This document shows positions 3,798 through 24,075 of a stretch of 24,770 nt of DNA, in pieces. Each line of letters opens with the position of its first letter. The stretch's first letter is position 1. Source of the DNA: a virus (lineage: Duplodnaviria > Heunggongvirae > Uroviricota > Caudoviricetes). Under the pieces are notes generated by a model. That model was not told the DNA's origin, searched no databases, and saw nothing but the letters and a program-made list of their open reading frames with translations. The DNA lies in IMG/VR virus record IMGVR_UViG_3300020426_000391. One strand, written 5' to 3'. The position numbers and the translations under genes are program-made.

Positions 3798-4181
3798 TCA
3801 CTGGATCCTGTGTGTGAAGTCGCAATCCTCGAGCGCGAACTGCCTGACGGCCTGCTTGTCCTCGTCCCAGGCCTCGAGCAGCCATCCCTCTTCGGGATGC
3901 CATTCGGTGCTGCCCCATGACAGGCCGGTCGGGATCGCCTGACGGATGCCGTGTTCTCCTCGCCAGTTCGTGTATCCGAAGGCGATGCTATGCGCTGGGT
4001 CCCTATCCGGCGCCGACGAAAGGGCTTCGATGGCCTCGCGTGCGATCGCCTCCCAGTCCAGCTTCTCCTGCTCCGGACAACGGTCATAGGGAAAACGCGA
4101 GGGATTGACTTCCATGCGTCGTAGCTTCGCGTCCCTGAGCCTTGCTGCGAGCTCCTTCACGTCTGCGTCTTCCATTCTCAT
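3798..4181 (-). CDS. Stand-alone WYL-domain protein, 127 aa
   Basis: C-terminal YTNWRGEHGIRQAIPTGLSWGSTEWHPEEGWLLEAWDEDKQAVRQFAL matches the WYL pattern (Y...R.I.P..L....W.L.A.D......R.F). ATGA overlap with the upstream gene. Confidence 0.75.
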   Translation of the reverse strand: MRMEDADVKELAARLRDAKLRRMEVNPSRFPYDRCPEQEKLDWEAIAREAIEALSSAPDRDPAHSIAFGYTNWRGEHGIRQAIPTGLSWGSTEWHPEEGWLLEAWDEDKQAVRQFALEDCDFTHRIQ

Positions 4182-5032
4182 TCTCCCTGTTCGACGATCT
4201 CGAGCCTGTCCATCGTGAGGGCGTCGGTCGCGAATACGGCCGTTCCATCATCGTATCCCGCCTCGACCACGATGGGGCCTTCGGGGACCAGTCCGAGTGC
4301 TTGACAGATCGCCGAGACGGGGCGCCCGACGCTGCCTGTCAGGAGGCTGTGATTCACCATTGCCCTGGGCAGGTGCAGTTCGCCGTTGGACCATGTCCAA
4401 TTGCGATCGTGATCCCTCATCCTGAGCATGCGGATCCCCGCCCTGGTCTCGATTTCCGTCTCTATGCGACCGTTGGGCAGTCTCATCGACCCCCGGTCGA
4501 GCATGTCATTCATGCTCTCGACTTTCCGCCAGCCGGGCTTCTTGGTGTCGAGCGCGGCGATGGCGGACGGGTCGAACGCCCTGAGATCGATCGCCTCGTT
4601 CTTGGCGGCTGTCTTGGCGAGCTGATGCGCGGCCTGTCTCGACCATGATGAGGGAAGCGGCATGCTGGAGTGGATGTCGCATTCGTCGAGTTGCTCGATC
4701 ATCGCATCGATCTCGATCTCCGTCTCGACCATGTCGACCATGTCGGTGGTCATCTCGACGAGCTGATGGAGGCCGTGCGGGAATGCGATGTCCAGCGTGT
4801 ACACCTTGTCCTCGTCACTGGTGATCGCGTTCCTCACGAGGTCGAACCCGTTGTCCGAGCATATCCTTCGCAGGTCTTCCTCTATCCGTGCGAAATCCCC
4901 CAGACCGGGAGTCCGAGCTGCGTTGAGATCGTGGACATACTGCCACATCTCCATGACCCACCCGCGGATGGCATCCCCATGCTCTGCATACAGGATGAAA
5001 GGATCGAAGAGATCCCGTGCCGACGAATTCAT
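4178..5032 (-). CDS. Hypothetical protein, shared C-terminal module family (member 1), about 284 aa
   Basis: TGATG coupling at 5030-5034. C-terminus WSNGELHLPRAMVNHSLLTGSVGRPVSAIC. Confidence 0.75.
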   Translation of the reverse strand: MNSSARDLFDPFILYAEHGDAIRGWVMEMWQYVHDLNAARTPGLGDFARIEEDLRRICSDNGFDLVRNAITSDEDKVYTLDIAFPHGLHQLVEMTTDMVDMVETEIEIDAMIEQLDECDIHSSMPLPSSWSRQAAHQLAKTAAKNEAIDLRAFDPSAIAALDTKKPGWRKVESMNDMLDRGSMRLPNGRIETEIETRAGIRMLRMRDHDRNWTWSNGELHLPRAMVNHSLLTGSVGRPVSAICQALGLVPEGPIVVEAGYDDGTAVFATDALTMDRLEIVEQGE

Positions 5033-5931
5033 CAGTCCTTCGTGCATGGGAAGCTCCTGGCGAGGCGAATGCCCTCATCATAGCCATCGGTCTCGATCTG
5101 GACCCCGGCCCCCTTGTTGACTGCGCTTGCGATATGGATGCCGTCGAAAGGCATTGGCATGTCGACGACATCCCTGAGCGACTGCCCCCTCAGGGATGCG
5201 AGGATCGTCTCGGGAAGACGTTCGGGAAGGCAGACGTGATTTCCCAGGAACATCAGGCCGGCGGTGTTGTAGGGGCCGATGTGGACCATGCCCATTCGTT
5301 TCTTGATGATCAGTTTTCCATTCGGATGATCGCAGTCCATTGGCGTCTCCACTAGGAGTCCGCGTGTATCGAGGAATCTGGCGAGACGATCATCATTCCT
5401 CGTCTCCTCCGCATCGCGGACCTGGTCGACCCGGAGACGTGGTGTCGTTCCCTCCTCGATCGCCTTCTTCAGATCCTCGTCCGTGATCCTGACCAGATGG
5501 TTCAGGGCAAGTCTTTCGAAGGCAATCGGCCTGTCTCCGAGCCATGTCGACATTTCCGTGCAGAACGCCTGTTCGGCGTAGCCCGATGCCTGGAGATCCT
5601 GCACCGCATCTTCGCCGTCCATCATCTTGAGACTTTCGCTCATGGTGCCCAGCATCATGAGTCCTTGATTCGAAGACGACGGGTCAAAGCTGAGGATATC
5701 CTTCGTGAGGCCGTGCTCGCACAGCGCGAATGTCTTCGTCTGGCATGACCCTGTCATCCGTAGATTTATTCCGCAGGCCGCGGAGTGGGATATCAGAGAT
5801 TCGGAGCATTTCTTTCCTGACGCAAGATCATCGTGAAGGATGTCGATGATCCCGGACATCCAGTTCCGCAGGCGCGGTATGTTGCTCTCGATCAACAGGT
5901 GATGGTCGAAGATCTGATGCGGTTTCAGCAT
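5032..5931 (-). CDS. Hypothetical protein, shared C-terminal module family (member 2), 299 aa
   Basis: C-terminus FLGNHVCLPERLPETILASLRGQSLRDVVDMP; overlaps both neighbours. Confidence 0.78.
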   Translation of the reverse strand: MLKPHQIFDHHLLIESNIPRLRNWMSGIIDILHDDLASGKKCSESLISHSAACGINLRMTGSCQTKTFALCEHGLTKDILSFDPSSSNQGLMMLGTMSESLKMMDGEDAVQDLQASGYAEQAFCTEMSTWLGDRPIAFERLALNHLVRITDEDLKKAIEEGTTPRLRVDQVRDAEETRNDDRLARFLDTRGLLVETPMDCDHPNGKLIIKKRMGMVHIGPYNTAGLMFLGNHVCLPERLPETILASLRGQSLRDVVDMPMPFDGIHIASAVNKGAGVQIETDGYDEGIRLARSFPCTKD

Positions 5932-6680
5932 TCTTCGTGCCTCCTTCCGCTTGCGGGTTCGAATGTCTCCTCGAGATGTATGATGGTCGTGCTCTCAGGG
6001 CACTCGACGTGCCGGACGGTCGCTTCCGTGAACGCGCTGCCGTATGGGTCGCCTTCCATAAGAGATGCTGCATCCCTCCCCACGATGCCGGCCATCGTCG
6101 AGGCGGGCAGACGGACCTGGGACATGATCAGGTGACCGTTCCGGTAGTAGGTTCTGCCGAGGGATGCCTGCACGAGGATCCTGCCCTGCGCGATCTTCAT
6201 CCCTATGTCATCGTCGAGCTTGTCGTAGCTTTTCCCGTAGCCCATCCTTTTCTCGTAGACGGAGGCTATCTCTCGGGACACTGTGGTCCTCCATTCCTCC
6301 CCCAGTTGGGCCTCGAGGATCGCACGGGCGCAGCTGGATATGTCCAGGGCCGCGAGATCCCCAGGGGTCCACGGTCCTCCCTGACGGATGATCCTGACGA
6401 GGCGGACCAACTCCGCCCTCATGGCCTTTATGTCCGGCCTCAGGTATGTCTTCCCATGGAGGTATCCGTTGGCATCGACCGCCACGCCGCGGATGCTCTT
6501 GTTCCCTGACACGGTCTCGGGCTCCATCCCGATCGATTCCATGACGCGGAGAAGCGTCGTCCTCACGCTGTCCTTGTCGCTGACATCGAGATCGAGACCG
6601 ATCTCCTTCGCGTAGGCCGTCGCCTCTTCCCGCTGCTTCAGCTTTTTCTCGCGTTTCGGGGATATCGGCTGTTCGGTCAT
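5925..6680 (-). CDS. Hypothetical protein, shared C-terminal module family (member 3), 251 aa
   Basis: SD AAGGGAGAAGGG. C-terminus YRNGHLIMSQVRLPASTMAGIVGRDAASLMEGDP. Confidence 0.78.
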   Translation of the reverse strand: MTEQPISPKREKKLKQREEATAYAKEIGLDLDVSDKDSVRTTLLRVMESIGMEPETVSGNKSIRGVAVDANGYLHGKTYLRPDIKAMRAELVRLVRIIRQGGPWTPGDLAALDISSCARAILEAQLGEEWRTTVSREIASVYEKRMGYGKSYDKLDDDIGMKIAQGRILVQASLGRTYYRNGHLIMSQVRLPASTMAGIVGRDAASLMEGDPYGSAFTEATVRHVECPESTTIIHLEETFEPASGRRHEEC

Positions 6681-6696
6681 GCCCTTCTCCCTTTTT

Positions 6697-7632
6697 TCAG
6701 TCTGCGCGACGCTTCATGATGGTGAGGCGGTCCCTTGCGTCGGTGCGGATGGCGATGCCGGGCTTGACTCCATTGGAAGGCTCCATGGAAAGCACCTTCA
6801 GTCCCAGTCCCCTTGTCATCGGCGTCTCGACGATATCGTCGAGTGATCTGCCCACCGATGCGAGCATGATCGTGTCTGGAAGGACCTTGTCGAGGAACAG
6901 CATATCCCCTCTAATGGTGCCCTTCTCGTGACGCTGGCCGTTTGCGCCGAGTATCCCGAGGCGCCTCACGAGATCGAAGTATCCGAATGCTGTGGCTTCC
7001 GCCTTGCGTCCGTTTCCGATGGCCGGCGTCCTGCTGTCCATTCTATCCTGGAAGACGGGGTCGCGCAGATATTCCATTCCGCGTCCTTCCTGTGGCTCTT
7101 CCATGTGCAGCTTGACGTCGAAGCTCGGTTCCTGACAATACCAGTCGAAAGAGCCGCGGCTGACGTGATCGAGTATCCGGATCGTTATCGGATCGACAGC
7201 GAAGGCCTTCCATCCTGACCGTATGAGTTCTCGTTCACCGATCGCGTGTGCGATCTTCATGCCCGGTCCCGTCCATTTGTCGGGGGCAGTGCGGCTCTCG
7301 ATATCCTCGATGAGCCTGTGCATCGCATCGATGCCCTCCTGACATCCCGCTCCATCCCCCTCGAACAGGAATACGGCCCGTTCGCCGGGGCAATGCTTCA
7401 GACCGAGATCCCGGGATACATCGCCTTCGCTTTCGCTATGGCAATGAGTCGTCATCGTCATCGGGAGGCCCATCTGCATGGATCTGTCGTGGATCCTCTC
7501 CGTGACCCGGATGGAATCCCGATCGTTCCGGTGCTCCTCGAGGATGACGATCATCTCGTTCGCCCAGTCTATGAGGGATTTCCCGACCTCGTTTATCAGC
7601 GAGGACCTGTCGAATAGGAGTTCCGGGGTCAT
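6697..7632 (-). CDS. Hypothetical protein, shared C-terminal module family (member 4), about 311 aa
   Basis: Start moved to the ATG at 7632 (SD CAGGAG). C-terminus IRGDMLFLDKVLPDTIMLASVGRSLDDIVETPMTRGLGLKV. Confidence 0.78.
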   Translation of the reverse strand: MTPELLFDRSSLINEVGKSLIDWANEMIVILEEHRNDRDSIRVTERIHDRSMQMGLPMTMTTHCHSESEGDVSRDLGLKHCPGERAVFLFEGDGAGCQEGIDAMHRLIEDIESRTAPDKWTGPGMKIAHAIGERELIRSGWKAFAVDPITIRILDHVSRGSFDWYCQEPSFDVKLHMEEPQEGRGMEYLRDPVFQDRMDSRTPAIGNGRKAEATAFGYFDLVRRLGILGANGQRHEKGTIRGDMLFLDKVLPDTIMLASVGRSLDDIVETPMTRGLGLKVLSMEPSNGVKPGIAIRTDARDRLTIMKRRAD

Positions 7633-7654
7633 GCTGCTTGCTCCTGTGAGGGGC

Positions 7655-7685: not shown

Positions 7686-7706
7686 CGGTTGTCTGGGGAA
7701 ACGGGA

Positions 7707-9172: not shown

Positions 9173-9207
9173 CGAGCGCCTCGCCTCTACCTTTGATACA
9201 GACGATC

Positions 9208-9244: not shown

Positions 9245-10399
9245 TCAGGATGAACTGCGATCTTTCATGAGACGCAGGGCATCGGGACGCCGCAAAAGCC
9301 CCGTCCTCCGCTCCGATTCTGCTGGAAGGGGAACGGAAAGCACCGGTCCCGGTCCAGGGCGGAGATCGCATCCTATCTCCCTTCCCCATCCGAATCCGGA
9401 ACTGCCCTCATGGGCGCGATCGATAATCGCCTCGCTTCCCCGCAGGAGCCAGTGATCCATCAGGGAGTCCAGCCGCCGGCCTGCCATTCTCGGCATTGCA
9501 GTGCGTAGGGTTTCCGGGAGGCGGTGTCCGGTGAGGACCACGGAATGGTCGTCCCATTGGATCCTCTCGACGGATTGGTCATCGGGTATGATTGCGGCAT
9601 TGGCGAAGACCCTGTGTCCTATGGATCTGATGTTTAGATCGATCCGGTTGCCCTTACCGGTGATCTTTATCGTCGGTTTCCAGTCGAGGACGTATCCGAT
9701 CGTCTCGGCGTCCGTCCACATGCCCCATGCGGCAAGAGCTCCGGCGAGATCATCGGGAGACGCCTTTTCGTATTCCTCTCTGCTGCATTCCCAGAAATCA
9801 TCGAAGGCCGTCGCCTCACTCCAGTCATGGTGGGTCCTGTTCCTCAGGACCGCGACCAGTGCCCGCGCGGAAACGGGGGAGAATCCCACGGGGATGCTGC
9901 GTTCCCTCCCGGCTCCGAACTCGAGTGCGATGCGGGTGTTGACGGCGTGCTCCAGGAGTCCTTCGGTCTGCTCTAATATCTCGGAACCGTCGATGAGGTC
10001 GCCCCAGGGGGCGGTGTCCATGCGCGCCGGGTAGAGGACCACCTGCTCTTCCAGCGCGTCGAGCCGCAGATGGATCTTCGCATAGAGCGCTTCATTGGTC
10101 TCCAACATGCGGAGACTCTGCCATCCGAGCGGAGATTCGAGCGTGAAGAGATAGCGTGGAATCCTCTTCTGAGCGGTTCCCTCGTTGGCGCCGGGTATTA
10201 CGATTACCTTCCCGCCTATGGCGTCGAGCATCCACTTGATGGCGGTCAACGATGCGGCCGGGCTCGTCCGATTGTCACGCCTGTCCTGCCATCGCTGCGT
10301 GAAGGACCGCATCCGCGCGATCATCCCGACGGCGATGGCGCGTGTCTCCTGCTCAAGGAGCAGGGCGTCCATCTCATGGGTGTCGCGCGGTTGTTCCAT
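9245..10399 (-). CDS. Hypothetical protein, shared C-terminal module family (member 5), about 384 aa
   Basis: Start moved to the ATG at 10399 (SD GAAGGA). C-terminus QWDDHSVVLTGHRLPETLRTAMPRMAGRRLDSLMDHW. Confidence 0.78.
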   Translation of the reverse strand: MEQPRDTHEMDALLLEQETRAIAVGMIARMRSFTQRWQDRRDNRTSPAASLTAIKWMLDAIGGKVIVIPGANEGTAQKRIPRYLFTLESPLGWQSLRMLETNEALYAKIHLRLDALEEQVVLYPARMDTAPWGDLIDGSEILEQTEGLLEHAVNTRIALEFGAGRERSIPVGFSPVSARALVAVLRNRTHHDWSEATAFDDFWECSREEYEKASPDDLAGALAAWGMWTDAETIGYVLDWKPTIKITGKGNRIDLNIRSIGHRVFANAAIIPDDQSVERIQWDDHSVVLTGHRLPETLRTAMPRMAGRRLDSLMDHWLLRGSEAIIDRAHEGSSGFGWGREIGCDLRPGPGPVLSVPLPAESERRTGLLRRPDALRLMKDRSSS

Positions 10400-10610: not shown

Positions 10611-12776
10611 TCATCCTTGTTCGATCAGCTCCTTGAGCCGCGTATTGCGCAGATTTCCGTCGTCGAAGGAGACAGCCTGTCGTATGGCGCGCTTCTGGCC
10701 GATCACGTAGCAGCGCAGCTTCGCCCGGGTGATACCCGTGTTCAGCAGGGTGCGACGCAGCAGCTTCCAGTGCGATGTGGTCATGGGCATGACGACGACG
10801 TCGTATTCCGAGCCCTGTGCCTTGTGGACGGTCAGGGCCCATGCGAGAGCGAGTTCGCTCATCTGACCGCTCGTGTAGTCGAGGCGTCGCGGACCCGAGG
10901 GGGTCTCGATCTCGACGGTGGCGACCTGGTCCTTGCCCCGGCCCCGGATGGCCACGATCTTGCCGACGTCGCCGTTGAAGACATCGCGGCCGTCGCAGTT
11001 CTCGAGCTGGATCACTTCGTCACCGACATGGGCAGGCGCTCCGCCAGCGAGGCGGACGAGGGGATCGCTTTCCGTCGACTCGATGGCGAGACGTTCGTTG
11101 AGGGCGCTGGTGCCGGCTTCCGAGGCATGACCGGGCGTCAGGATCTGCACCTTGTTGCCCTGCGAGGTCTCCTTCAGGAAGATGCGTTCGACCTCCTTGG
11201 CGATGTCCTCGTTGTCGCGCTTCTCGATGAAGATGAGATCGTGACCCCATTCGGGCATGCGCCCCTCGCAGATCGCATCGGCACCGGCAGCGATAGCGGA
11301 GCCCTCCGTCTGACGCCTGTTCTCGGTCAGCTCCACGGTCGGGACGTTGCCTGCCGCGACGAGATCACCGAACACCCGGCCAGGACCGACCGATGCGATC
11401 TGGCGGGCATCACCGATGAAGAGGATCTGTGCCTCGCCCCATGCGCGACTGAACGCACCTGCGAGGTAGATGTCCAGCATGGAGGTCTCGTCGATGGCAA
11501 TGGCGTCGGCCTCGATCGGGTTCTCGTCGTTGTGCGTGAAACGCCCGTCGCTGCTGCCAAGCATCCGGTGCATGGTCTGCGCCCGGACGCCGGTCTTCTC
11601 CCGCATGCGTTGTGCGGCCTTGCCGGTCGGAGATCCGAGGTCGATCTTGCGCCCGAGCTCCTTCCAGCACCGCACGATGATGTCGAGCACCGTGGTCTTC
11701 CCGCGGCCGGGACCGCCCGTGATCACGCATAGCGGCTCGATCACGGCCATGATCGCCGCTTCGCGCTGGAGTTCGTTGAGTTCGATGCCGACTTCGCGTT
11801 GCTTGCGATCGACGATCTCCTCCGCCTCCTCTCGGGTGGCGAGCTTTTCGCAGGCGAGCTTGGCCAGGATCGCCCGTGCGACATCCGTCTCCTTCCAAGA
11901 GAGCTTCTGCAGGGCCCACCCCTTCTGGCCATTGACGTCGACGATGACAGCGCCGCCGCATGCACCCTGATCGAAACTGCGTGCGATCAGGGAGGCAGGC
12001 AGATCCGTGAGTGAACTCGTCTGCTGGACGATGTCGTTGACAGGCATCCAGCTGTGACCCTCGTCCTCCGCCTGTCTCAGGACGTCGCGGGCCGCCGCCA
12101 TGATCCGATGGTCGCTTTCCTTGTTCATTCCGGCGTTGGCGGCGATCTGGTCCGCAGTCCGGAAGGCGATGCCCTCTACTTCCATGATCAGACGGTAGGG
12201 ATCCTTCTCGATCACGCGCCCCGTCTCCGTTCCGAAGGTCTCGTAGATCTTGACACGTGTCTGTCGCCCGATGCCCAGTTCGGTGAGCTTGGGCCCGAAC
12301 TTCGCTTCGCCGTAGCGCGAGGTCAGGGCCGCACGCACGGCATCGTAGCGCTTGGCGAGGAGTTCCTTGGCCAGCGGATCCCCGCGCACGATGCGTTCGA
12401 CCGCATTCTCTCCGAGCCTGTCCGCGATGGCGGCTGCGCGGGCCTTCCCGATGCCTTCGATGCCCGCCTCGGAGATCCATTTCGCGAGAGCCTCGGTCGA
12501 ATCGAGCGGAGCGCTGATGACGCGCGCGTCGAACGCCTGGAGCTGGCTGCCGAAGCGGGGGTGGTTGGTCAGGCGCCCCTTCACCTCGAGCTTGTCGCCG
12601 ATGCCGAAGCCGACGAGGACACCGCGGCCCTTGATTGACATCTTCGATCCGTCGGCGAGTCGCAGCGAGAGGATCGCGAAACCGTCCGAGGTCGGGCCGG
12701 AGATGTAGCGCTCCACCTTGCCGGTGTAGGTCTTCGTGGCGGTGGCTGGGTTCGTCTTTCGGACTGCCTGGCTCAT
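10611..12776 (-). CDS. recD2: ATP-dependent RecD-like (RecD2) SF1B DNA helicase, 721 aa
   Basis: N-terminal OB-like and HhH-type segments (IEGIGKARA, DPYRL..EVEGIAFRTAD); Walker A ITGGPGRGKTT; DETSM; IGDARQIASVGPG; LTENRRQ; ALTVHKAQGSEY; TGITRAK. Confidence 0.95.
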   Translation of the reverse strand: MSQAVRKTNPATATKTYTGKVERYISGPTSDGFAILSLRLADGSKMSIKGRGVLVGFGIGDKLEVKGRLTNHPRFGSQLQAFDARVISAPLDSTEALAKWISEAGIEGIGKARAAAIADRLGENAVERIVRGDPLAKELLAKRYDAVRAALTSRYGEAKFGPKLTELGIGRQTRVKIYETFGTETGRVIEKDPYRLIMEVEGIAFRTADQIAANAGMNKESDHRIMAAARDVLRQAEDEGHSWMPVNDIVQQTSSLTDLPASLIARSFDQGACGGAVIVDVNGQKGWALQKLSWKETDVARAILAKLACEKLATREEAEEIVDRKQREVGIELNELQREAAIMAVIEPLCVITGGPGRGKTTVLDIIVRCWKELGRKIDLGSPTGKAAQRMREKTGVRAQTMHRMLGSSDGRFTHNDENPIEADAIAIDETSMLDIYLAGAFSRAWGEAQILFIGDARQIASVGPGRVFGDLVAAGNVPTVELTENRRQTEGSAIAAGADAICEGRMPEWGHDLIFIEKRDNEDIAKEVERIFLKETSQGNKVQILTPGHASEAGTSALNERLAIESTESDPLVRLAGGAPAHVGDEVIQLENCDGRDVFNGDVGKIVAIRGRGKDQVATVEIETPSGPRRLDYTSGQMSELALAWALTVHKAQGSEYDVVVMPMTTSHWKLLRRTLLNTGITRAKLRCYVIGQKRAIRQAVSFDDGNLRNTRLKELIEQG

Positions 12777-13291
12777 CGTCTTTTTCCTTCTTCGATCTGA
12801 ATGCTGTTTCCACTTCCCTCAGGAAGCGGTTCCGGCCATTTCCGCCATGTCGGCGGTGTGGGCTCGAGTATGATTCTGGTGCCGTTCGGCAGGTGCTCCA
12901 CGGTCTCTGCCCTGATTTTCCCTTCTCCGAGGATGGTCCGTCCGAGACACCTTTCGACTCCTCTTCCCGTCATGCCCAGAGCGAGAGACGCGGGGATCTG
13001 CGCGAGCAGCGTGATTGCCTGGGTCGCGTTGTATGGGCCGAGCACGGCCCGGCCCAGTGCGCTACCGAAGGTCGCGATGGGCATGCCGACCCTGTTGCCC
13101 GTGAGGCTCACTGTGCCTTCGAGCGGCAAGCGGACGCCATCGGGGATGAGAAGGGACGTATCGGTATCGAGGGATATCCGCCCGCCCCTTCCGAACCGGG
13201 CCACGTCGAGAGCCCGTCGGTGAAGAGCGGCGAGCATGTAGGCCTCGTCGATTCCCGCTTCTATGATGATTGTATCGAGGAGGCCCGTCAT
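12773..13291 (-). CDS. Hypothetical protein, shared C-terminal module family (member 6, short), about 172 aa
   Basis: SD GGAGG before GTG-ATG (13291); ATGA overlap with recD2. Contains AITLLAQIPASLALGMTGRGVERCL. Confidence 0.7.
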   Translation of the reverse strand: MTGLLDTIIIEAGIDEAYMLAALHRRALDVARFGRGGRISLDTDTSLLIPDGVRLPLEGTVSLTGNRVGMPIATFGSALGRAVLGPYNATQAITLLAQIPASLALGMTGRGVERCLGRTILGEGKIRAETVEHLPNGTRIILEPTPPTWRKWPEPLPEGSGNSIQIEEGKRR

Positions 13292-13843: not shown

Positions 13844-13864
13844 AAAAAGGAGGTTCCCCTCCTT
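13842..13864 (-). terminator. Rho-independent terminator
   Basis: Minus strand reads AAGGAGG-GGAA-CCTCCTT-TTTTT, starting at the stop codon of 13864..14748. Confidence 0.7.
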
Positions 13865-14748
13865 CAGTGGTATGCTTCCACGGCGACGAGGCTTCTGTGG
13901 TCTTCCGCCGTGGTCCTTATCGTGATCTCATCCTCATCCGTTGATATGGAGGTGATCTTCACGCCCAGGCCGGTGGCGGGGTGGTTCTCGATGAGGTGCT
14001 CGATGGGTCTTCCGACCATGGCGCTCCGTATCGTGTCCGGAATGCGCTGCTTGAGATGTATGCGTCCCTCGTGCTCGCCGTATCGGCCCATGTCGCTGAG
14101 GATCAGGTTCCCGATGCGCCTGGCACCTTCGAAGGGCAGTGTATCGGACTGGATCCGCCCCTTCATGAGCTTCGCGAAAGAGGTGCACCTATCCGTTGGT
14201 TCCCTGCTCGCCATGTCGATTGTGCATGCCCCGATGACGAGTGGGTCGACGAGCATCACGTAGCTCGCACTGTCGCGCAGGGCAGGCAGGCAATGCCTTA
14301 TCCGGGCTTCGTGCCTGTCGATCGCGTCGGCGATATCGAACGCCAGTCTCTCCATCTGCTGCCGGGACGTGGGGGTTGTCACACCGTCAAGGCTCCCTCG
14401 CAGTACGTCGAGATTCCATCTCTTCCTTTCCGAGGCTTCCATCAAAGCGCGGCACTGTCTTTCCATGTTGACCTTGTCCGAGATGCCTCCGGCCTCCTGC
14501 TTCAGGAGCGGTGTCACCCCGTCTCTCACCTCGATGGTGTGTCCGGCTACGCCGATGGCGAGCCCGGTGTCCGCACGTATGCTTCCGAGTTCCTTCCACA
14601 TCTCCTCGGAGATGTCTTTGAAGCGTCTCCCGTCATTGTCGCCCTTGTAGGCGCCCCATAGGGATATGACGGCCCTGCACACCCTCTCGATCTGGTCAGT
14701 CCTCCGCCCGACCTTTCCCGACGGCCCGTGTTCGCTCCATGGGATCAT
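13864..14748 (-). CDS. Hypothetical protein, shared C-terminal module family (member 7), about 294 aa
   Basis: ATGA coupling at 14745-14748. C-terminus HEGRIHLKQRIPDTIRSAMVGRPIEHLIENHPATGLGVKI. Confidence 0.78.
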   Translation of the reverse strand: MIPWSEHGPSGKVGRRTDQIERVCRAVISLWGAYKGDNDGRRFKDISEEMWKELGSIRADTGLAIGVAGHTIEVRDGVTPLLKQEAGGISDKVNMERQCRALMEASERKRWNLDVLRGSLDGVTTPTSRQQMERLAFDIADAIDRHEARIRHCLPALRDSASYVMLVDPLVIGACTIDMASREPTDRCTSFAKLMKGRIQSDTLPFEGARRIGNLILSDMGRYGEHEGRIHLKQRIPDTIRSAMVGRPIEHLIENHPATGLGVKITSISTDEDEITIRTTAEDHRSLVAVEAYH

Positions 14749-15602
14749 GGTCGTTCTCCGTTGGGATATGGTGGGGGCCTGAGTTCGATCAGCTGTCGGG
14801 GTTGCCAGGCATCGGTGTGGAGATGGAGCAGGCCACTCTGGTGATGCGTCATCCTCGTGACGTTGATGTCGAGGGATCTGCATCCTTCGAAATCCAGGAG
14901 CTCGGCTAGGCCTACGTTCCTGCGCAGCGTGATGCTGTCGGGGATGCGCGCATCTATCGGGACGATGTCCTCGCGAACGTCTCCGTCCCTGTCGACATGG
15001 AGAAGGTTCATGGTCCTCTGAACTCCCAGGAGAGAAAGAGCCCTCCTTGACCATCTGTCCTTCTGCTGGGACAGCCTCTCCTCGGCCATGCGGACGAGGA
15101 TCTGGATGGTTCTGTTCCTCACGCTGCGCCCCGTTGCGCGCGCCAGGACGAGGACGGCCATCCTGTCCGCCAGGAAGACATCGTTCCTTTCATGGTGCCG
15201 TGCGATCCCGTGGAGTGCCAGACACAGGCTCGTGGCCGCTGCCGCTTGCCTCCTCTCGTCAGCCCACTGCGTCACGGGAACACGACCTCGTCCGATCGCC
15301 TCGGCCGCCTTCGTGAACCGGTGCTGCATCTGGATGCAGCCTGCTTCGCTCTTGGGCATTCTCAACGTGAACACCTCCTTGTCGGGAAGGTGGACATGGA
15401 GGTAGGCGCTCTTCTCTCCGTTGTTGAAGTGCGAACTGACCCCTCCCATCGCTTTGGTCAGATCCTCACGGATCCGCGCGATGCTCGGAAAGTCGTGCCA
15501 GTATCCGTGGAGGAAGCGATTGATCAGGAGAACCACTTCGTCCAGTTCACGGTGATATCTCTCGTATCTTCCGGCCGGGAGCAGATGATCGATATCGTTC
15601 AT
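14745..15602 (-). CDS. Hypothetical protein, shared C-terminal module family (member 8), 285 aa
   Basis: ATGA couplings at both ends. C-terminus VREDIVPIDARIPDSITLRRNVGLAELLDFEG (lacks the G[RK] pair). Confidence 0.75.
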   Translation of the reverse strand: MNDIDHLLPAGRYERYHRELDEVVLLINRFLHGYWHDFPSIARIREDLTKAMGGVSSHFNNGEKSAYLHVHLPDKEVFTLRMPKSEAGCIQMQHRFTKAAEAIGRGRVPVTQWADERRQAAAATSLCLALHGIARHHERNDVFLADRMAVLVLARATGRSVRNRTIQILVRMAEERLSQQKDRWSRRALSLLGVQRTMNLLHVDRDGDVREDIVPIDARIPDSITLRRNVGLAELLDFEGCRSLDINVTRMTHHQSGLLHLHTDAWQPRQLIELRPPPYPNGERP

Positions 15603-16558
15603 CCGGAATTCTCCATGTTCATCACCATGGCTGTCAGCCTGGCGCGTCCGCAGGCGTCCGTCCGGATGCCGCTCACATTACCTTGCGATGTCGAATAGGT
15701 CTCCACGCGCTCGATCATGAGACCCAGGCCATCTGTCATGGGATGCTGGATGGCCTGCCTGAGTGGTTTGTCGGTGTATCCCGCCGCCTGGGTCTTGGTC
15801 ATCTCGAAGCGGAGCTTGACCGTGCCATCGGTGATGTAGTCAATCTGGGATCCGCCGAAGAATGACACGACCGAACGGGCGGAACCGTTCTCGATCGTTA
15901 TGGCTATGCTGCGGAGATCCGGGATGTCGCTCCCGTTGATCTGGTATTCCTCTCGCAGCAACGGACCATCGCCATGTTCCGTTACGATGCGCTGGAGGGT
16001 CCTTCTGGCCTTCTTGAGGTTGTCGGCCTCGTTTCCCCTGAGGGCACCGGCGAGGACGGCGTCATCCAGTATCACGTTGCGTCCCTCGTCCTCGCGGTCC
16101 TCCCTGGCTTCATGTATGAAGGCGAGCAGACGCAAGGTGATCGGATCGACGTCGAGGGTCAGGTATCGTGTACCTGGGGCCTGTCCCCTCTTCTCGCGCT
16201 CCAGCGCCCAGGCCATCATGGCCAGTTCCTTCACCTGACCGGCGGCGCGTTCGAAGTCGCCGTCGGGGGTCTCGCCCTCTTCCCACTTCGAGAGGATCCT
16301 GGCGATCTCCTCGTGGGTGGTGATCAGGGCCTCCGTGGAGGTGTAGTAGAGGATCTGCGGATCGGGGCTGATGTCACTGGCGTATCCGGCTTCGTAGTGC
16401 CAGGCATTCCCCTCCTGATTCAGCCTGCTGACTAGCCTTTCCAGGCTGCCACCCTCGTTTGCGAGTTCGAGCGTGCGTGTCACGCATTCCCCGATCTGGC
16501 GCATGTGGGCACGCAATCGTGCCGCATGTCCTAGTCGAGGCATGGTGGCTATGCTCAT
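15599..16558 (-). CDS. Hypothetical protein, shared C-terminal module family (member 9), 319 aa
   Basis: SD CAGGAG. C-terminus ITDGTVKLRFEMTKTQAAGYTDKPLRQAIQHPMTDGLGLMI. Confidence 0.78.
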   Translation of the reverse strand: MSIATMPRLGHAARLRAHMRQIGECVTRTLELANEGGSLERLVSRLNQEGNAWHYEAGYASDISPDPQILYYTSTEALITTHEEIARILSKWEEGETPDGDFERAAGQVKELAMMAWALEREKRGQAPGTRYLTLDVDPITLRLLAFIHEAREDREDEGRNVILDDAVLAGALRGNEADNLKKARRTLQRIVTEHGDGPLLREEYQINGSDIPDLRSIAITIENGSARSVVSFFGGSQIDYITDGTVKLRFEMTKTQAAGYTDKPLRQAIQHPMTDGLGLMIERVETYSTSQGNVSGIRTDACGRARLTAMVMNMENSG

Positions 16559-16627: not shown

Positions 16628-17029
16628 TCATCCCTTCTCGTATTCGAGGACGATGAGGGGTATGGGGATGTATCTCGTGGTCGTCGCCTTGCTTCCCCGG
16701 ATGACGGCATCCGAGAGGAAGGGGGCGACGTCATCGGGAAGCGATATGACATCCGCTATGCGTTTGCCATGCAGATTCCCTTCCACGAAGAACGTATCGG
16801 GCATGGTGAGACCGGTTATCGTGACACTCGATTGGATGCCTAAGGCCGAGATTGTCTCCTGCCAGGCCATCCGGTCTCGTGACATGCGGATGTGTCGACG
16901 AAAGGTGCTGTTCCGATATCGGATCCCCCAACCATCGGCGAAGAAGTCGGCCTTCGCGTCTTCCATGCTGCGACCTGTGTTCTCGATGATCGTCCGCAGG
17001 TAGGCGCTGAGGGCGGTCTCGGGTATCAT
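16628..17029 (-). CDS. Hypothetical protein, shared C-terminal module family (member 10, short), 133 aa
   Basis: ATGA coupling. C-terminus SSVTITGLTMPDTFFVEGNLHGKRIADVISLP. Confidence 0.72.
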   Translation of the reverse strand: MIPETALSAYLRTIIENTGRSMEDAKADFFADGWGIRYRNSTFRRHIRMSRDRMAWQETISALGIQSSVTITGLTMPDTFFVEGNLHGKRIADVISLPDDVAPFLSDAVIRGSKATTTRYIPIPLIVLEYEKG

Positions 17030-18618: not shown

Positions 18619-20268
18619 TCAGGCGGCCTTCTTGATGCCTCCGCCCATGTAGTCCGGGAGATTGATGATCTCTCCGGTGCCTTCGAGTCCCTGCGAGGTT
18701 CCGCCCTGCGTGATCATCCAGATCAGCTTGAGACCCTCGGTGTTCTCAGGCGGGCTGAGATATCCGTCGGTCATGATGATGCAGGCGCGATAGGGCGTCC
18801 GCATCTCCTTGATCTCCTTGAAGACGTTGCCCATGACGGTGCCGCCGCCACCCGTGATGCCGTCTTCGAGCAGCTTCGAGAAGTCGCTCTTCGACTTGAT
18901 CTCGATCTTCTGCTGCACGTTGTGATCGAAGGTGACGACATCGACCGCGGCGTTCTTCATCTTGGCGATTGACCAGACCTCGGCGAAGCACTGGTTCAGC
19001 TCGCTGAGATGACTCCCGGAGACATCCAGGATCACGAGGACACGCGGACGTTCGGAAAAGATCGTCGTGCCCGGCTGATAGGGTGCCCTGCGGCGCATCG
19101 CGAGCGAGGCCCGGGTCGACGCACCGAAGCGCGTATAGCTGTCATCGAGCTTCGTCCCCAGTTCACGCGTGACGGTCTTGCGCAGGAAGTGATCCCACGG
19201 AATGACTGCTTCCGGCAGATCGTTCTCGAGTGCGAGAAGCATGTTGCCGGAGCCGATGCCCTGCATCTTGAGACCCTGGATGATCGCCTGGATCTTCCCG
19301 CGCGCCTCGTCGATCTCACCGTTCGCCTTGGCGATCAGGTCGTTGATGTTGGCGCCATTCTCCAGCAGTTCGCGGATCTCGTCGAGCGAATCGGCCAGAT
19401 CCCACGCCTCCTCGGTCCGCACGATGCGTTCGATCTGTGTCTCGTCCGAAGGGACGTCGGCCTCGCAGCCGCACTGGGAGCCGTCCTCGTCCTTCTGATC
19501 CTCCTGTCCGGAGCCCGATCCGCTGCCATCCTGTTCGGTGGCCTCGTTCTCCTTGTCGGACTGGCCCGAGCCTTGTCCTTCCTGTTCGCCCGGGTCACCC
19601 TCTCCGGATCCGGAACCGCCCTGCGTCTGACCGCGCTGGCCGCTCTGGCCCTTCTGGCCCTGGCCCTGACCCTGTTGGGCCTGCTGGGCCTTGTCCGCCT
19701 CGCGCTTGCGCTGCACCGCGCTGTGGGCCCACACGAGCCAGTCGTAGACGGTCTCCATCTGGAGATTGAGACGCGCTTCCTTGTCGTAGCCCTCAGGCGG
19801 CTTCTCGCCGGTGAAGTCGATCGCCTCCTTGATGATGCCGTGAATGGTCTTCATGGTGATGCCGGGGAAGTCCTTCGGCATCGCGATCTGGTTCGTCTTG
19901 GCCATCGTCTCCTCGTTGATGGCCTCGTTGATGATGGCATCTGCCGCATAGTTCGGCAACGGCTGGATGATCACGCCCTTCTGCAGGAGGAGCAGTTTCG
20001 TCCGGGTTGGGTGACGGAAGATGCCGTGCATCATCTCGTGGAGGAATATGTAGTTGCGACCGGACTGCTCGATCTCTTCGTACTTCTTCCCGTACCATAC
20101 GGTCGTGCCATCGGTGCAGGCGATCATGCCGGGGTCGTTCGCGATCTGCGCGGCGCGGTGTGCGCCTGCCTTCTTGTGCTGGAGCATGAAGGCCAGGCCG
20201 ACCATGTGAGGCATCCACAGCAGGATGGCCTTCTGCTCGCGACTCACGTCGTGTTCGAACTTGCTCAT
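18619..20268 (-). CDS. HExxH metallopeptidase + vWA-like domain protein (DUF2201-type), 549 aa
   Basis: ACTDG; FLHEMMHGIFRH; NYAADAIIN; Q/G/S/E-rich linker; C-terminal MIDAS-type ILDVSGS, GGGGT, MTDGY. Confidence 0.9.
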   Translation of the reverse strand: MSKFEHDVSREQKAILLWMPHMVGLAFMLQHKKAGAHRAAQIANDPGMIACTDGTTVWYGKKYEEIEQSGRNYIFLHEMMHGIFRHPTRTKLLLLQKGVIIQPLPNYAADAIINEAINEETMAKTNQIAMPKDFPGITMKTIHGIIKEAIDFTGEKPPEGYDKEARLNLQMETVYDWLVWAHSAVQRKREADKAQQAQQGQGQGQKGQSGQRGQTQGGSGSGEGDPGEQEGQGSGQSDKENEATEQDGSGSGSGQEDQKDEDGSQCGCEADVPSDETQIERIVRTEEAWDLADSLDEIRELLENGANINDLIAKANGEIDEARGKIQAIIQGLKMQGIGSGNMLLALENDLPEAVIPWDHFLRKTVTRELGTKLDDSYTRFGASTRASLAMRRRAPYQPGTTIFSERPRVLVILDVSGSHLSELNQCFAEVWSIAKMKNAAVDVVTFDHNVQQKIEIKSKSDFSKLLEDGITGGGGTVMGNVFKEIKEMRTPYRACIIMTDGYLSPPENTEGLKLIWMITQGGTSQGLEGTGEIINLPDYMGGGIKKAA

Positions 20269-20429
20269 GATTTTCCTTCTCTATCGCGTATTCGCGAACG
20301 ATGAATTCCAAGGGGGATTCTGGACGGTGCGGAGGCCGCTGTCACCCGTCCGTTTTCCCTTCATGGAAAAAAATTCACATGGATGTCATTTTTATGTTGC
20401 GTTATGATTCGGACCATCCTAAAAACACT

Positions 20430-20747
20430 TCTGAGGCCACGGAAGGCCCCTTCCTCCGGGAAGAGGTTCCTTCCTCCCTTCGGGGAGGGCCCCGCCGCTC
20501 CTTCGGGAGTTGCGAGGTTCCGGCAGCGTCTCCTTCGGGAGACGCCGATCCGAGGTCTTACGGTGACATGGGAGGATTCGCTTCCCCCTGCTGTCCACCG
20601 TGTCGGCCAGGCTGGTAGCCGCCGCCGACGTTCCGGCCCGAGGGCTTGCCCCGCGGACCGCGCGCCAGGCACGGCTCACGTCGCACTCGCTGCGGCAGGT
20701 CAGGTCAACGGAAGGCCCGATGCTTCGGCATCGGGCCTTCTTCGTTT
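20430..20747 (+). ncRNA. Candidate structured non-coding RNA, about 320 nt, family unknown (5' end approximate)
   Basis: Occupies the only large intergenic gap. Hairpins with C(UNCG)G loops at 20450-20463, 20473-20488, 20493-20514, 20526-20545 and 20711-20740; further stems at 20560-20601 and 20602-20629. G-U pairs form only on the plus strand. AT-rich 5' flank with TATGAT at 20403-20408. Confidence 0.55.
20711..20747 (+). terminator. Terminator-like hairpin (possibly also acting on the convergent minus-strand gene)
   Basis: Perfect 13-bp stem GAAGGCCCGATGC-TTCG-GCATCGGGCCTTC followed by TTCGTTT on the plus strand; abuts the stop codon of 20747..21631. Confidence 0.7.
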
Positions 20748-21631
20748 CAGGGTCCGGTGGGAATGTCTATCCTGCGCCTGACGGGTGCTCTGCCCCGATT
20801 GATCAGGAAGGTGATGGTTGAATCGGTGTTCCTGCGGCTCATGCCCCGGATGACCATCGATTCGTCCCGGTATCCGTCGATGTCCACGATCTCGTGCAGC
20901 GGTCTGCCGATGTAGACGTTCTCCTGCTTTAGGACCTCCGGCAGGCTGTCGACCTTGATCCGGATCTCGTCCCCGTCGATGGTGAGCGGATCAGTGCTGT
21001 GATTGGCGGTGATCGTGATGCCGCGTCGGACCGTGCCCGGGAGCTTCGACCATTCGAGACCGGTTTCTGCGATTGTCGTGATCGCACGTCTGATGACCTC
21101 CGTCCTCGTCCGTTCGTCTGCGTCATCGGCTATCTGCAGGTTGTCATCGATCCGATCGCACGAACCGGATATCAGGTGGATGGAGAGGGTGTCGGTCTCC
21201 ACTATGTCGATGTGCCACGGGATCATGCCCTTGAACCCGGCCTTCCTGATCAACTCGGCGAGCCGTTCGCCATGAAGCTTCTTCATGTGCATGTGGATGA
21301 CATGGGAATCGACATCCCGGAAGCGCTCCCATCGTGCGGGCAGGTCAAGGTCACGGGTCCAGTCCCTCAGCTGTGCCACCTGGTGATCATGGCCCGTCCT
21401 GTCCGTGCTGATGTCCAGCTTTCCATCGATTATGTCGAATATGACCGTGTGACCGGTCTCCGAGCGTTCGCATTGTCTCGGACCGATGCCGAGGAGGCCT
21501 GCGATCTCCTGGACCTCATCGGAAGTGATTGCCCGATCGGGTGCGGAGAGGATCTCCCCAAGCCTGTCGTAGATGATTGCCAACTCGTCGCGGTGTTCCG
21601 CGCGCCAGCTCTCGAGGATGGTCTCCATCAT
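20747..21631 (-). CDS. Hypothetical protein, shared C-terminal module family (member 11), 294 aa
   Basis: SD GAGGAGG with ATGA coupling. C-terminus IDGDEIRIKVDSLPEVLKQENVYIGRPLHEIVDIDG. Confidence 0.78.
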   Translation of the reverse strand: MMETILESWRAEHRDELAIIYDRLGEILSAPDRAITSDEVQEIAGLLGIGPRQCERSETGHTVIFDIIDGKLDISTDRTGHDHQVAQLRDWTRDLDLPARWERFRDVDSHVIHMHMKKLHGERLAELIRKAGFKGMIPWHIDIVETDTLSIHLISGSCDRIDDNLQIADDADERTRTEVIRRAITTIAETGLEWSKLPGTVRRGITITANHSTDPLTIDGDEIRIKVDSLPEVLKQENVYIGRPLHEIVDIDGYRDESMVIRGMSRRNTDSTITFLINRGRAPVRRRIDIPTGP

Positions 21632-22305
21632 TCCTCCTCCTGGTCCCAGTCTTCATCGTCCTCGTCCTCGTCTCCGATGAACTCCATCGTGAGACGGGCG
21701 ATGCGGCCATCGGGAGTCATTGTCTTCTTCAACTGGTATTCGCCGTCGCCCCATCCGGTATCCGTCACGAGGATGCGATCGCCGATCATGCCGATGCCGT
21801 CGTCATGGCACTTGCACAGCCCGTTGTAGCTGACCTTGAGATCGTCTTCGTCGATCTTCACCGGCTCCCATTCCCCGCTCGCGTTGAGCTGGTTCATGGT
21901 CTGCCCTCCCTCGGAGGGGATGGCAGCTTCGTAATGCGGGAAGTCGACACAGTATTGGAGCGTCCGGCCATCGGTCTTGTGACGGTAGACGCGGATGTTC
22001 TTGTATTCCTCTTCCTCCCATCGCGCGCAGAACTCGGCGGCATCCGCGAATACGAGCTGCGCGCTGTCGACTCCGAGCTCCTTTATGACCTCGGGTCGTC
22101 CGTCGTCCTCCTGGAAGAAGACGAGGCTGATGGAGGCGACCCTTCCTTCCTTCTCGGTGTGCTCGACGATCGCGGTATTGGGAACGCGGAGCTCGATGTA
22201 GTCCTCGTCGGGCGGATTGCCGGAGGCGATCGCGTCGATCTCGTTCCGATCGAAGTAGCAGGGGTCACCGATGAGGAGACGTCCGCTGGAGATGCACAGG
22301 ATCAT
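21628..22305 (-). CDS. DUF4241-like protein, about 225 aa
   Basis: SGRLLIGDPCY, GVDSAQLVFAD, TGWGDGEY. Start moved to 22305 (SD GGAGG). Confidence 0.7.
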   Translation of the reverse strand: MILCISSGRLLIGDPCYFDRNEIDAIASGNPPDEDYIELRVPNTAIVEHTEKEGRVASISLVFFQEDDGRPEVIKELGVDSAQLVFADAAEFCARWEEEEYKNIRVYRHKTDGRTLQYCVDFPHYEAAIPSEGGQTMNQLNASGEWEPVKIDEDDLKVSYNGLCKCHDDGIGMIGDRILVTDTGWGDGEYQLKKTMTPDGRIARLTMEFIGDEDEDDEDWDQEEE

Positions 22306-22330
22306 GAATTTTCCTCCACTTGAAATATCT

Positions 22331-22540
22331 TCAGACGAACATGTTAATCTGGTTGGGATCGCGCTTCGCTTCTGCGGCCGCTGCGCTGATGGCTGCATTG
22401 TTGCGTGCCATCTTGGCCTTCCCGGCCAGGCGCCTGAGCGCATCGGCGGTCCTCTCGTTCTCGTCGGTCCTGTCGGTGGTCTCGAGACCGGCCGCAGCGA
22501 GACGTGCCGCGAAGGCGGCTCCGGTGGTTGTGCTGCTCAT
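22331..22540 (-). CDS. Small Ala-rich hypothetical protein, 69 aa
   Basis: Purine-rich SD AAGGGAAAAAGG; fills the gap between co-oriented genes. Confidence 0.65.
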   Translation of the reverse strand: MSSTTTGAAFAARLAAAGLETTDRTDENERTADALRRLAGKAKMARNNAAISAAAAEAKRDPNQINMFV

Positions 22541-22583
22541 CCTTTTTCCCTTCTCTGCCGAAGTCCTGCTTCGGTCGTCGCCT

Positions 22584-22838
22584 TCACTCGTTTCCCAGAG
22601 CGGTGAACCTGTCGTCTTCGCTGGCGGGCCTCAGAAGGAGGCTCTTTTCATGGGGATGGACATGGAGCCAGGCGCGCAACGGTCCGCGTGGATCCTCGTA
22701 TGGCTGCTTCGTCTCGGCGTCCTGCGCAATGCCGAGATCCCTGTAGAGTCCACCCTTGCGGTGCTGATGCGTCGCTTCCGGTGCAAGGTCCTTCAGTTCT
22801 CGATGGCTCTTCCCGATCAGTTTCTCATGCGGCTTCAT
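22584..22838 (-). CDS. DUF1653-like small protein, about 84 aa
   Basis: THQHRKGGLYRDLGIAQDAET...LLRP...RF resembles the DUF1653 pattern (H.KG..Y...G.A..SET...W.RP...RF). SD GAAGGAAG before the ATG at 22838. Confidence 0.55.
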   Translation of the reverse strand: MKPHEKLIGKSHRELKDLAPEATHQHRKGGLYRDLGIAQDAETKQPYEDPRGPLRAWLHVHPHEKSLLLRPASEDDRFTALGNE

Positions 22839-24075
22839 ATCGGATTCTTCCTTCGTCCTTGAGCGATCCACGGATACCCTGACGGGCTCGCTTGACGGAT
22901 CTGATTATCATGTCGTCGGTTATGCGCGGGTGCTCCACGAACTCACGGAGACGCTTGCCGACCATGGCCTCCATGGTCGCATGTGGTATCTCGACCCTCG
23001 GCAATTCGAAGGTGGCGTTGAGAAGGCGCAGGATGCGTCTCTTGTCCTTCTCCACGATGAGTTCGCCCCCGATGACGCCATCCCGGATGACCAGCTTCTC
23101 GCGTGTCCTGAGGTCCCCGTTGGTATGCGTGCGCCATTTCGTGATCTTCCTGGGGTCGCGTCCGTTGTTCTCGAGGATGGCCTTTCCCAGGCTGGTGATG
23201 ATCGTTCCGCGCCCCTTTGCGAGAGCGTGTCGCTTGGCATGGAGCCTTATCTTGGTCTCGATCTCGCTCAAGGTTTCCTTGTTGGGCTGTGGCGCTTCCA
23301 GATGAGGATGGACCTCCATGGTGGCCAGGATGCAGTCGGAGAACGGCTCCAGCATGGAATCAAGGGTCTCGATCTCGATGAGGCCTTCGCGCCACGAGGG
23401 GAATCTGAAACCGTATGGAGGAAGTGGCGCATGGAGGTCGCGCATCTCCTCGATCTCACGGGTGAGGCGCTCCTTGGCGAGATCGATGGCGGCATCGGGG
23501 CTTCCGGGTATTCCTCTCTCCCGCATGATGATCCCCTCGGCCATGCGGTCGGCGGCATGACCTCCGTCCGCATGTGAGCGTGTCCTCACGGTAATGGTTA
23601 TCTGTCTTCCGTCCGGTTCCCATCCCTGAAGGCAGGCGAAGACCCTGCGGATGTTTCCGTGGACCTGGACTTCACGCAGGTGGATGCGTCTTCCTTCTTC
23701 GTGCCCCGGGGCGGCTCCGGGATCATGAAGGCCGATCTCGTTGCCGTATTCGACCTTCCAGCCCCTTTCCTCGAGGCGCCTCTTCCATATCGAGAGATCG
23801 TGCTCCTGCTCTTGGATTATCGAGCCGTCCGCGAGGATGTGGAGGCTCGCCTTCGCACCCCTTTCTCCGTAGGAGAGATGGTTCCCCTCCAGGATAACCT
23901 CCTCTCCTGCCAGATGCGCTCTCCCGCGGGCCAGCGGCTGGGAGAAGTCATGTTTCCTTATGAGGCAATGGAAGTCCCTGACGAGCGTTTCCGTAACGTG
24001 GTCCGAGTGCAGGAGGGCCTTCAGGACCTCCCTCGCCGTGGCGGATGTGCCGACGAGGGAGGAGTCCATGGTCAC
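22825..24075 (-). CDS. Hypothetical protein, shared C-terminal module family (member 12), 416 aa
   Basis: ATGA coupling. C-terminus LLNATFELPRVEIPHATMEAMVGKRLREFVEHPRITDDMII. Confidence 0.8.
   Translation of the reverse strand: MTMDSSLVGTSATAREVLKALLHSDHVTETLVRDFHCLIRKHDFSQPLARGRAHLAGEEVILEGNHLSYGERGAKASLHILADGSIIQEQEHDLSIWKRRLEERGWKVEYGNEIGLHDPGAAPGHEEGRRIHLREVQVHGNIRRVFACLQGWEPDGRQITITVRTRSHADGGHAADRMAEGIIMRERGIPGSPDAAIDLAKERLTREIEEMRDLHAPLPPYGFRFPSWREGLIEIETLDSMLEPFSDCILATMEVHPHLEAPQPNKETLSEIETKIRLHAKRHALAKGRGTIITSLGKAILENNGRDPRKITKWRTHTNGDLRTREKLVIRDGVIGGELIVEKDKRRILRLLNATFELPRVEIPHATMEAMVGKRLREFVEHPRITDDMIIRSVKRARQGIRGSLKDEGRIRYEAA

Follow-up and report, generated by a model that had tools for sequence, protein, structure and literature searches.

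Does a group of functionally unassigned genes in a marine virus record represent one protein family, and what might a virus do with so many copies of it? The question is raised by a stretch of 24,770 nucleotides (hereafter the window) from the IMG/VR record IMGVR_UViG_3300020426_000391, catalogued under Caudoviricetes, in which an earlier note, made from the sequence without database searches, had grouped twelve hypothetical open reading frames (ORFs) by a recurrent pattern close to their C-termini. The analysis reported here suggests that the 12 ORFs are diverged paralogues of a single uncatalogued family carried by giant-phage-like mobile elements, and that the shared module would be the conserved structural core of this family, not a loose peptide tag. 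The reading that we tentatively favour is that of an old, fast-diverging accessory family of giant-phage-like elements, whose paralogues may constitute a repertoire of host-interaction binders built on a conserved scaffold domain, the function being proposed partly by analogy.

The twelve ORFs share one C-terminal module

The stop coordinates under which the ORFs had been listed are those of minus-strand ORFs, and members are named here either A to L or by these coordinates (from 4178 for A to 22825 for L). Alignment of the C-termini with MAFFT placed the motif in register in 12/12 proteins, over a module of 75-90 amino acids (aa). Each member was then left out in turn and scored with a hidden Markov model (HMM) built from the other 11, against 1000 shuffles of the left-out protein: 10/12 members scored above all their shuffles (12.4-48.7 bits, shuffle maxima 6.6-15.0), whereas the score of 12773 (7.5 bits) was reached by two shuffles and that of 16628 (5.1 bits) by six. 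These two are the weakest members, followed by 14745, 4178 and 5925, instead of the set formed by the first, eighth and ninth members that the earlier note had singled out. When the 12-member HMM was run against the six reading frames of the window, exactly these 12 ORFs were recovered, with E values from 3e-25 to 5e-8, the next match being at E 0.92.

Orthologues of 10/12 ORFs were found in synteny in a relative of the element (L001), with ratios of nonsynonymous to synonymous substitution rates (dN/dS) of 0.03-0.25 in both halves of the proteins, and each paralogue has its own full-length orthologues in the protein library, at 24-69% identity. The syntenic and further full-length orthologues, together with the low dN/dS, indicate that the 12 ORFs are real genes, and every orthologue pair is under purifying selection. 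Their products measure 133-416 aa by longest ORF and 133-414 aa by the public gene calls, and no obvious signal or membrane segment was noticed when the translations were inspected by eye.

Predicted fold of the module and library searches

A search of 1.84 billion representative proteins with a profile built from 24 modules gave 282 matches at E ≤0.001, nearly all metagenomic among the best 151, from which the following details of the wider family were taken (149 proteins entered the library scans). In 137/151 of these best matches no more than 40 residues separate the module from the C-terminus, and in 126/151 the hallmark hydrophobic-Pro-x-Thr/Ser ... Gly-Arg/Lys is present; the proteins that bear it range from 74 to 473 aa and are dissimilar in their remaining sequence. 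The wider consensus runs W-x-G-x-h-x-h, then L-P-E-T-h-x-x-A-h-x-G-R-P-L-x-D-V-V-D-H-P, and ends in a hydrophobic strand. Conserved in it are Pro (98%), Gly (96%), Arg/Lys (89%) and hydrophobic positions, for the most part of a structural kind.

An AlphaFold2 model of the module, computed from 136 sequences, reached a predicted local distance difference test score (pLDDT) of 84.6 and a predicted template modelling score (pTM) of 0.74, and shows, in order, two beta-hairpins, a helix beginning at the conserved Pro, the Gly-Arg/Lys turn, a short helix, a Pro and a third hairpin. The order strand, helix, Gly-Arg turn, helix, strand proposed from the letters alone agrees with this predicted secondary structure. 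None of the polar residues is common to all 12 paralogues: 4178, for instance, lacks the L-P-E-T part, 14745 the Gly-Arg pair, and 15599 both the Pro and the Gly of the motif. This makes a part in binding or as a scaffold more likely than an active site, and an enzymatic module was rejected on the same ground. The short library matches (74-153 aa) and member 16628 (133 aa) are hardly more than the module, which suggests that it can also stand as an autonomous unit.

The earlier note knew no named domain for the module, and the library scans bear this out. Pfam gave no match for any of the 12 window proteins and contained no family common to more than two of the 149 wider-family proteins. Likewise, no family common to more than two members was found in PHROGs v4 (149 wider-family proteins and 10/12 window members), in NCBIfam 20 (149 wider-family proteins) or in PADLOC 2 (29 full-length proteins of alignment A5). 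Against the PDB the best rows for the module were E 0.19 with Foldseek and Z 4.3 with VIA-align, for which the stated noise level is Z 7-8; the best match in BFVD was at E 0.28, and in the ESM Atlas the shape search gave at best a template modelling (TM) score of 0.49 and the feature search 0.89, which is under its useful range. About ten uncharacterised AlphaFold DB (AFDB) clusters did match the module model (A0A0T0PXB8, A0A4R2T2B8, A0A4P7R090, A0A1G3KA45, M4S2D6, A0A430G1N8 and about four more), with Foldseek probability 1.00, TM 0.58-0.73 and the matched part C-terminal. These clusters come from cellular-proteome entries, carry neither name, function nor family, and show 10-28% sequence identity; against the full-length model of 6697 they gave near full-length alignments at E 9e-7 to 4e-4, four of them at E ~1e-6, and they are probably true members of the family. 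On the strength of the models, the module is predicted to be a folded alpha/beta domain of ~75-90 aa, with no catalogued relative in any library searched and no clear match among solved structures.

Full-length architecture of the members

The proposal of a constant module on variable N-termini stood only in part: the module is indeed C-terminal on otherwise dissimilar proteins, but several of the N-termini are related, and the notion that all of them are unrelated was contradicted by profiles from which the module had been removed. In hhalign comparisons of such profiles, 4178 and 6697 still matched with 94% probability (E 1e-7, 146 collinear columns) and 5032 and 6697 with 93% (E 3e-7), followed by a weaker match between 6697 and 15599 (E 3e-4). 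Seven members (4178, 5032, 6697, 13864, 14745, 15599 and 20747) are 285-314 aa long, have the module starting at residues 195-226 and are collinear with their orthologues over the full length, with an N-terminal helix and an h-h-x-D-P-h-x-h-x-h-L motif in the same columns. A merged N-terminal profile of A, B, D and I also gave collinear alignments with G, H and K, which were non-significant.

The AlphaFold2 model of full-length 6697, based on the alignment of these seven members and their orthologues, had a pLDDT of 93 and a pTM of 0.89, predicting one compact protein rather than a tag on a linker. Against the PDB this model gave a best Foldseek E of 0.083, and its best VIA-align rows, at Z 5.3 and 5.1 and thus under the noise level given above, were cores resembling class II aminoacyl-tRNA synthetases (aaRS). 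In the members of ~290-310 aa the module would accordingly be packed on a faster-diverging N-terminal alpha/beta region to form a single compact cytoplasmic protein, and in the short members it would make up about the entire protein.

Arrays and distribution of the family

Marine metagenome contigs carry the same DNA as the window, the longest one examined measuring 227,742 bp and the longest on record 265,950 bp, and a relative with 69% protein identity comes from deep-sea samples. The family extends beyond the twelve: one or two further members lie just past the low end of the window (L001/L005, representing the relative and the same element), and none was found in the next 7 kb at the high end. 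A second cluster with at least 4-6 members is located on the same 227,742-bp contig, ~13-34 kb further along (L022:4631-10765; record positions 108621-129385), so that one large element holds 12 members in the window, 1-2 beyond it and those of the second cluster. The members of the latter are 289, 229, 281, 133, 514 and 254 aa long, and the cluster adjoins genes for DpdA, a Vut_1 transporter, a 2OG-Fe(II) oxygenase and an oppositely oriented 524-aa Macro-domain protein.

Arrays were also present in unrelated phage-like contigs with G+C contents of 47-69%. Counted per ~20 kb, the densest comprised 17 copies in 20 kb (L010, positions 1-20480, 69% G+C), followed by 11 copies in L027 (47% G+C), seven in L025 (67% G+C), five in L026, four in L011, two in L009 and one in L024. 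The L010 members are interleaved with genes for a uracil-DNA glycosylase (UDG), a 323-aa class II aaRS-like protein and a PadR-like protein. The lone 462-aa member of L024 (1-21389) sits in an island with an MmeI-type restriction-modification enzyme, T5orf172/MUG113, two AcrVA2-like genes and a BLIP-like gene, and a weak AcrVA2-like gene lies inside the 11-copy array (L027:10796-11377). Among 401 sampled alphaproteobacterial genomes only two marginal module matches were obtained, the module being nearly absent from the cellular genomes sampled.

Other searches were less productive. A word-index protein search, made with one protein and also with an alignment, returned only the query itself and close orthologues; a related-locus search of IMG/VR with a single protein gave nothing, and a degenerate DNA pattern for LP[DE]T..GRP..[DE]HP had 0 matches in IMG/VR. 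The same pattern had eight matches in genome contigs, all of which were rejected by the HMM.

Most modules of the window element have their best match in another element, suggesting old paralogues, while in L026 and L027 the best match is for the most part another module of the same element, suggesting a more recent expansion, although best matches are a noisy measure of duplication age at such divergence. Between the window and L025, the AAA ATPases are 51% identical and the VWA proteins ~43%, whereas the family members are alike in the module only; the family thus diverges at a far higher rate than the AAA ATPase next to it. The family may have grown by old tandem duplications, with purifying selection keeping each paralogue.

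Possible roles of the family

The G+C content of the window is ~61% throughout, and nearly every plausible gene is on the minus strand. The neighbours of the family in the window match PHROG families (phrog_1297 at 3e-60, phrog_1314 at 3.5e-34, phrog_4412 at 1.5e-111 and phrog_424 at 2e-30) and are typical of phage; this giant-phage-like element is probably of phage nature. In the other contigs the arrays are accompanied by genes for NAD-dependent ligase, sigma factor, DpdA, thymidylate synthase, UDG, class II aaRS and Peptidase_M78, and in two cases by AcrVA2-like genes and an MmeI-type restriction enzyme nearby; these neighbourhoods look like accessory regions of large phages. Megablast with the complete window as query yielded zero matches in plasmids and phages; with tblastn, member 6697 had no match in plasmids and phages, and the consensus-like relatives P0152 and P0014 had none in phages, even at E 0.1.

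The suggestion of the earlier note that the variable parts act against host defences or in host takeover is in keeping with these neighbourhoods, which correspond to early or accessory phage regions with AcrVA2-like neighbours in two contigs; the role itself is one that we infer. By analogy with other viral multigene families, the paralogues would be deployed as a binder repertoire against different host functions, be it in takeover or in counter-defence, with the conserved domain serving as a common scaffold or contact surface and the variable parts conferring target specificity.

Several observations weigh against this proposal. The case for host interaction draws only on neighbourhood and analogy, and dN/dS gave no sign of positive selection on average, though a repertoire engaged in an arms race might show it. 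N-terminal homology was not significant for G, H, K, C, E, F, J and L, so some members may join the module to unrelated N-terminal parts. Finally, no capsid, portal or terminase gene was present in the part of the element that was read, and because no virion gene was seen there, the element is named giant-phage-like and its phage nature is not taken as proven.

Among the alternatives, the one that survives best, although we consider it unlikely, is that the module is a docking or sorting domain by which a range of different proteins are delivered to a single partner common to them all, be it a machine of the phage or of the host. Candidate partners would be the MoxR-type AAA+/VWA pair found in the array, some protease or chaperone, or the machinery of capsid packaging. 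The near-terminal position of the module (≤40 aa from the C-terminus in 137/151 best matches) on such dissimilar proteins would suit a docking signal, and the pair in question, a MoxR-type AAA_5 ATPase (17338-18564, minus strand; Pfam; phrog_1297) and a DUF2201 metallopeptidase/VWA protein (18619-20268, minus strand; Pfam; phrog_1314), is embedded in the window array. Moreover, in L025 (5683-9914), a distantly related contig, a 473-aa family member is placed between the DUF2201/VWA and AAA_5 genes, but since the window element and L025 are related, inherited gene order could account for this link. In a comparison with the vWA-MoxR-associated (VMAP-type) ternary conflict systems, where a MoxR ATPase and a vWA protein adjoin a third protein bearing VMAP domains, the window has an AAA_5 and DUF2201/VWA pair and L025 a family member between the homologous genes; no Pfam family matches the members, the presence of VMAP models in the Pfam set used being unchecked. 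Against docking, the module is part of a compact globule in the 6697 model, the N-termini of at least three members are homologous, and around the arrays in L009, L010, L011, L022, L024, L026 and L027 no AAA_5/DUF2201 gene occurs at a distance of up to 10 kb. The more specific version, in which a module of new fold would be the common docking domain through which at least about twenty proteins of one giant phage reach a single machine, either the AAA+/VWA pair or a host hub, appears less likely still.

It is more doubtful again that the family consists of nucleic-acid-binding regulators, whether transcription factors or RNA binders. The helix, Gly-Arg/Lys turn and helix of the module resemble phosphate-contacting motifs, other jumbo-phage expansions have been read in this way (PMC7824862), and residues 41-112 of 6697 have the alpha-beta-beta-beta-alpha order of a double-stranded RNA-binding domain (dsRBD). 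However, the dsRBD-like rows are weak (PDB probability up to 0.66, E 0.083-0.9; ADAR1 dsRBD3 at Z 3.3; AFDB DRBM at probability 0.57-0.80, E 0.055-0.13), every fold match is below significance, and 9/12 members are acidic overall, with isoelectric points (pI) of 4.7-6.6, while the modules span pI 5.0-10.5 and share no basic face.

We regard as quite improbable that the module is a homo- or hetero-oligomerisation domain by which the paralogues form one multi-subunit structure, possibly a component of the virion or of an intracellular scaffold. Many members overlap their neighbours by 4-16 nucleotides (nt), suggesting co-translation in fixed ratios, and beta-hairpin domains would be expected often to pair edge to edge. 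Nevertheless, structural and virion genes are missing from the vicinity, the genes surrounding the arrays are replication and accessory ones, and copy number and composition vary greatly between elements, which would be unusual for a fixed assembly.

Lastly, a transfer signal for conjugation or a type IV secretion system (T4SS), like the BID domain invoked by the earlier note, is scarcely credible: BID is helical and functions together with a T4SS, whereas the module, which shares with the BID-domain effectors of alphaproteobacterial VirB/D4 systems just the general pattern of a common C-terminal element on otherwise differing proteins, is predicted to be beta-rich (three hairpins, two short helices), is found in a phage-like setting among phage-typical neighbours, has no match in a plasmid record, and has no T4SS, relaxase, coupling-protein or other conjugation or secretion gene for company in the window or in the ~17 kb of flanks read.

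The individual members and their neighbours in the window

All members are encoded on the minus strand. Member A (4178..5047, 289 aa) has its module at 4217-4450 (HMM E 4.8e-23; leave-one-out 13.8 bits, 0/1000 shuffles) and orthologues in P0013 (58% identity) and P0070 (32%). It overlaps by 16 nt with member B (5032..5931, 299 aa; module 5080-5304; HMM E 1.3e-22; 25.1 bits), which is followed by C (5925..6680, 251 aa; module 5967-6203; HMM E 8.7e-13; 14.5 bits, 0/1000), whose orthologue P0012 is 60% identical. The highest leave-one-out score, 48.7 bits, was that of D (6697..7632, 311 aa by the public gene call; module 6733-6969), with orthologues at 69, 44, 33 and 34% identity. The module of E (9245..10399, 384 aa), at 9359-9616, is followed by a 37-aa tail (HMM E 4e-23; 24.7 bits), and the orthologues of this member are P0061 (48% identity) and P0091 (38%).

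Directly downstream of A, a 125-aa protein (3798-4175, minus strand) matches phrog_3715 at E 4.9e-19 and, weakly, a WYL domain (E 0.0027); phrog_3715 was also matched by 1/149 wider-family proteins. In the middle of the array, two minus-strand genes (7707-8240 and 8309-9172) encode proteins with signal-peptide-like N-termini: the 287-aa protein has a Pro/Thr-rich linker and a C-terminal part that ends in an H-x-H-containing stretch, with no Pfam or PHROG match, and the 177-aa protein matches phrog_34874 weakly (2.6e-4).

The interval of member F (12773..13291, 172 aa; module 12857-13066; full HMM E 2.2e-17) overlaps with its start the stop of that of a RecD2-type helicase gene (10611-12776, minus strand) by 4 nt. 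Members G, H and I lie next to one another: G (13864..14748, 294 aa; module 13903-14124; HMM E 3.2e-25; 37.9 bits) has orthologues P0017 (44% identity) and P0075 (29%), and H (14745..15602, 285 aa; module 14805-15020; full HMM E 1.9e-16), the member without the Gly-Arg pair, scored 12.4 bits against a shuffle maximum of 11.4 and has P0067 as orthologue (42% identity). For I (15599..16543, 314 aa; module 15650-15868; 17.1 bits), four full-length orthologues at 30-59% identity were found, with dN/dS of 0.03-0.06. The shortest member is J (16628..17029; module 16703-16876; full HMM E 5.3e-8). Beyond the AAA_5/DUF2201 pair lie K (20747..21631, 294 aa; module 20804-21034; 21.0 bits), with four full-length orthologues at 24-47% identity, and L (22825..24069, 414 aa; HMM E 1.8e-22; 30.7 bits), in which the module (22828-23079) reaches the last residue.

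The sole large gap (20269-20746, minus strand), between member 20747 and the DUF2201 gene, divides the array into at least two transcription units. Its predicted folding energy is -219.4 kcal/mol (z -4.81), equalled by 0/100 shuffles, and it comprises a strong hairpin after the 20747 stop, a run of hairpins with C-C-G-A/G-A-G-G loops and, ahead of the next gene, an AT-rich stretch. Neither an Rfam family nor a tRNA was found in it. A scan for promoter and terminator consensus sequences remained at chance level. Further recognisable genes of the window encode a PAPS-reductase-like protein, a histidine phosphatase and an Rce1-like protease; two other minus-strand genes gave weak matches below threshold, one (21628-22305) to DUF4241 and one cut by the window start (2-547) to DUF4262, both at E 1.3e-4.

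Comparison with known multigene families

The favoured reading, a repertoire of host-interaction binders on a conserved scaffold domain, can be set beside lineage-specific expansions reported for jumbo phages, which include ~35 copies of a zinc ribbon and the expansion of Myb-type helix-turn-helix domains in the Bacillus phage G group (Iyer et al. 2021, PMC7824862). Lineage-specific multigene families of giant phages are thus a known kind, but the domain met with here is undescribed in every library searched. As in those cases, many diverged and largely tandem paralogues of one domain occupy a non-structural region of a very large genome, the domain is rare or absent in cellular genomes and its function would be deduced indirectly. 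Here, in contrast, the domain is a different, uncatalogued and beta-rich one that is always C-terminal, the proteins are larger (mostly 250-415 aa), and the elements, with 47-69% G+C, are uncultured and of unproven phage nature.

A second parallel is offered by the ankyrin/PRANC (F-box-like) family of poxviruses, whose proteins join variable parts that bind the targets to a conserved domain at the C-terminus, and PRANC docks to a known host ubiquitin-ligase subunit. The layout is the same by analogy only, there being no relation in sequence or fold, and the N-terminal parts are not repeats here.

Large parts of giant-phage genomes are taken up by expanded families of uncharacterised proteins, to which much of the biology of host manipulation is ascribed. 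The present family is a well-defined case, with a confident domain prediction, hundreds of divergent members and arrays of up to 17 copies in 20 kb; it merits formal definition by an HMM and a structural model, and is tractable for the search for partners and for structure solving. If the conserved domain were a shared docking surface, it would represent a new way in which phages organise their effector repertoires, and a bacterial-virus counterpart of the ankyrin/PRANC adaptor families of poxviruses.

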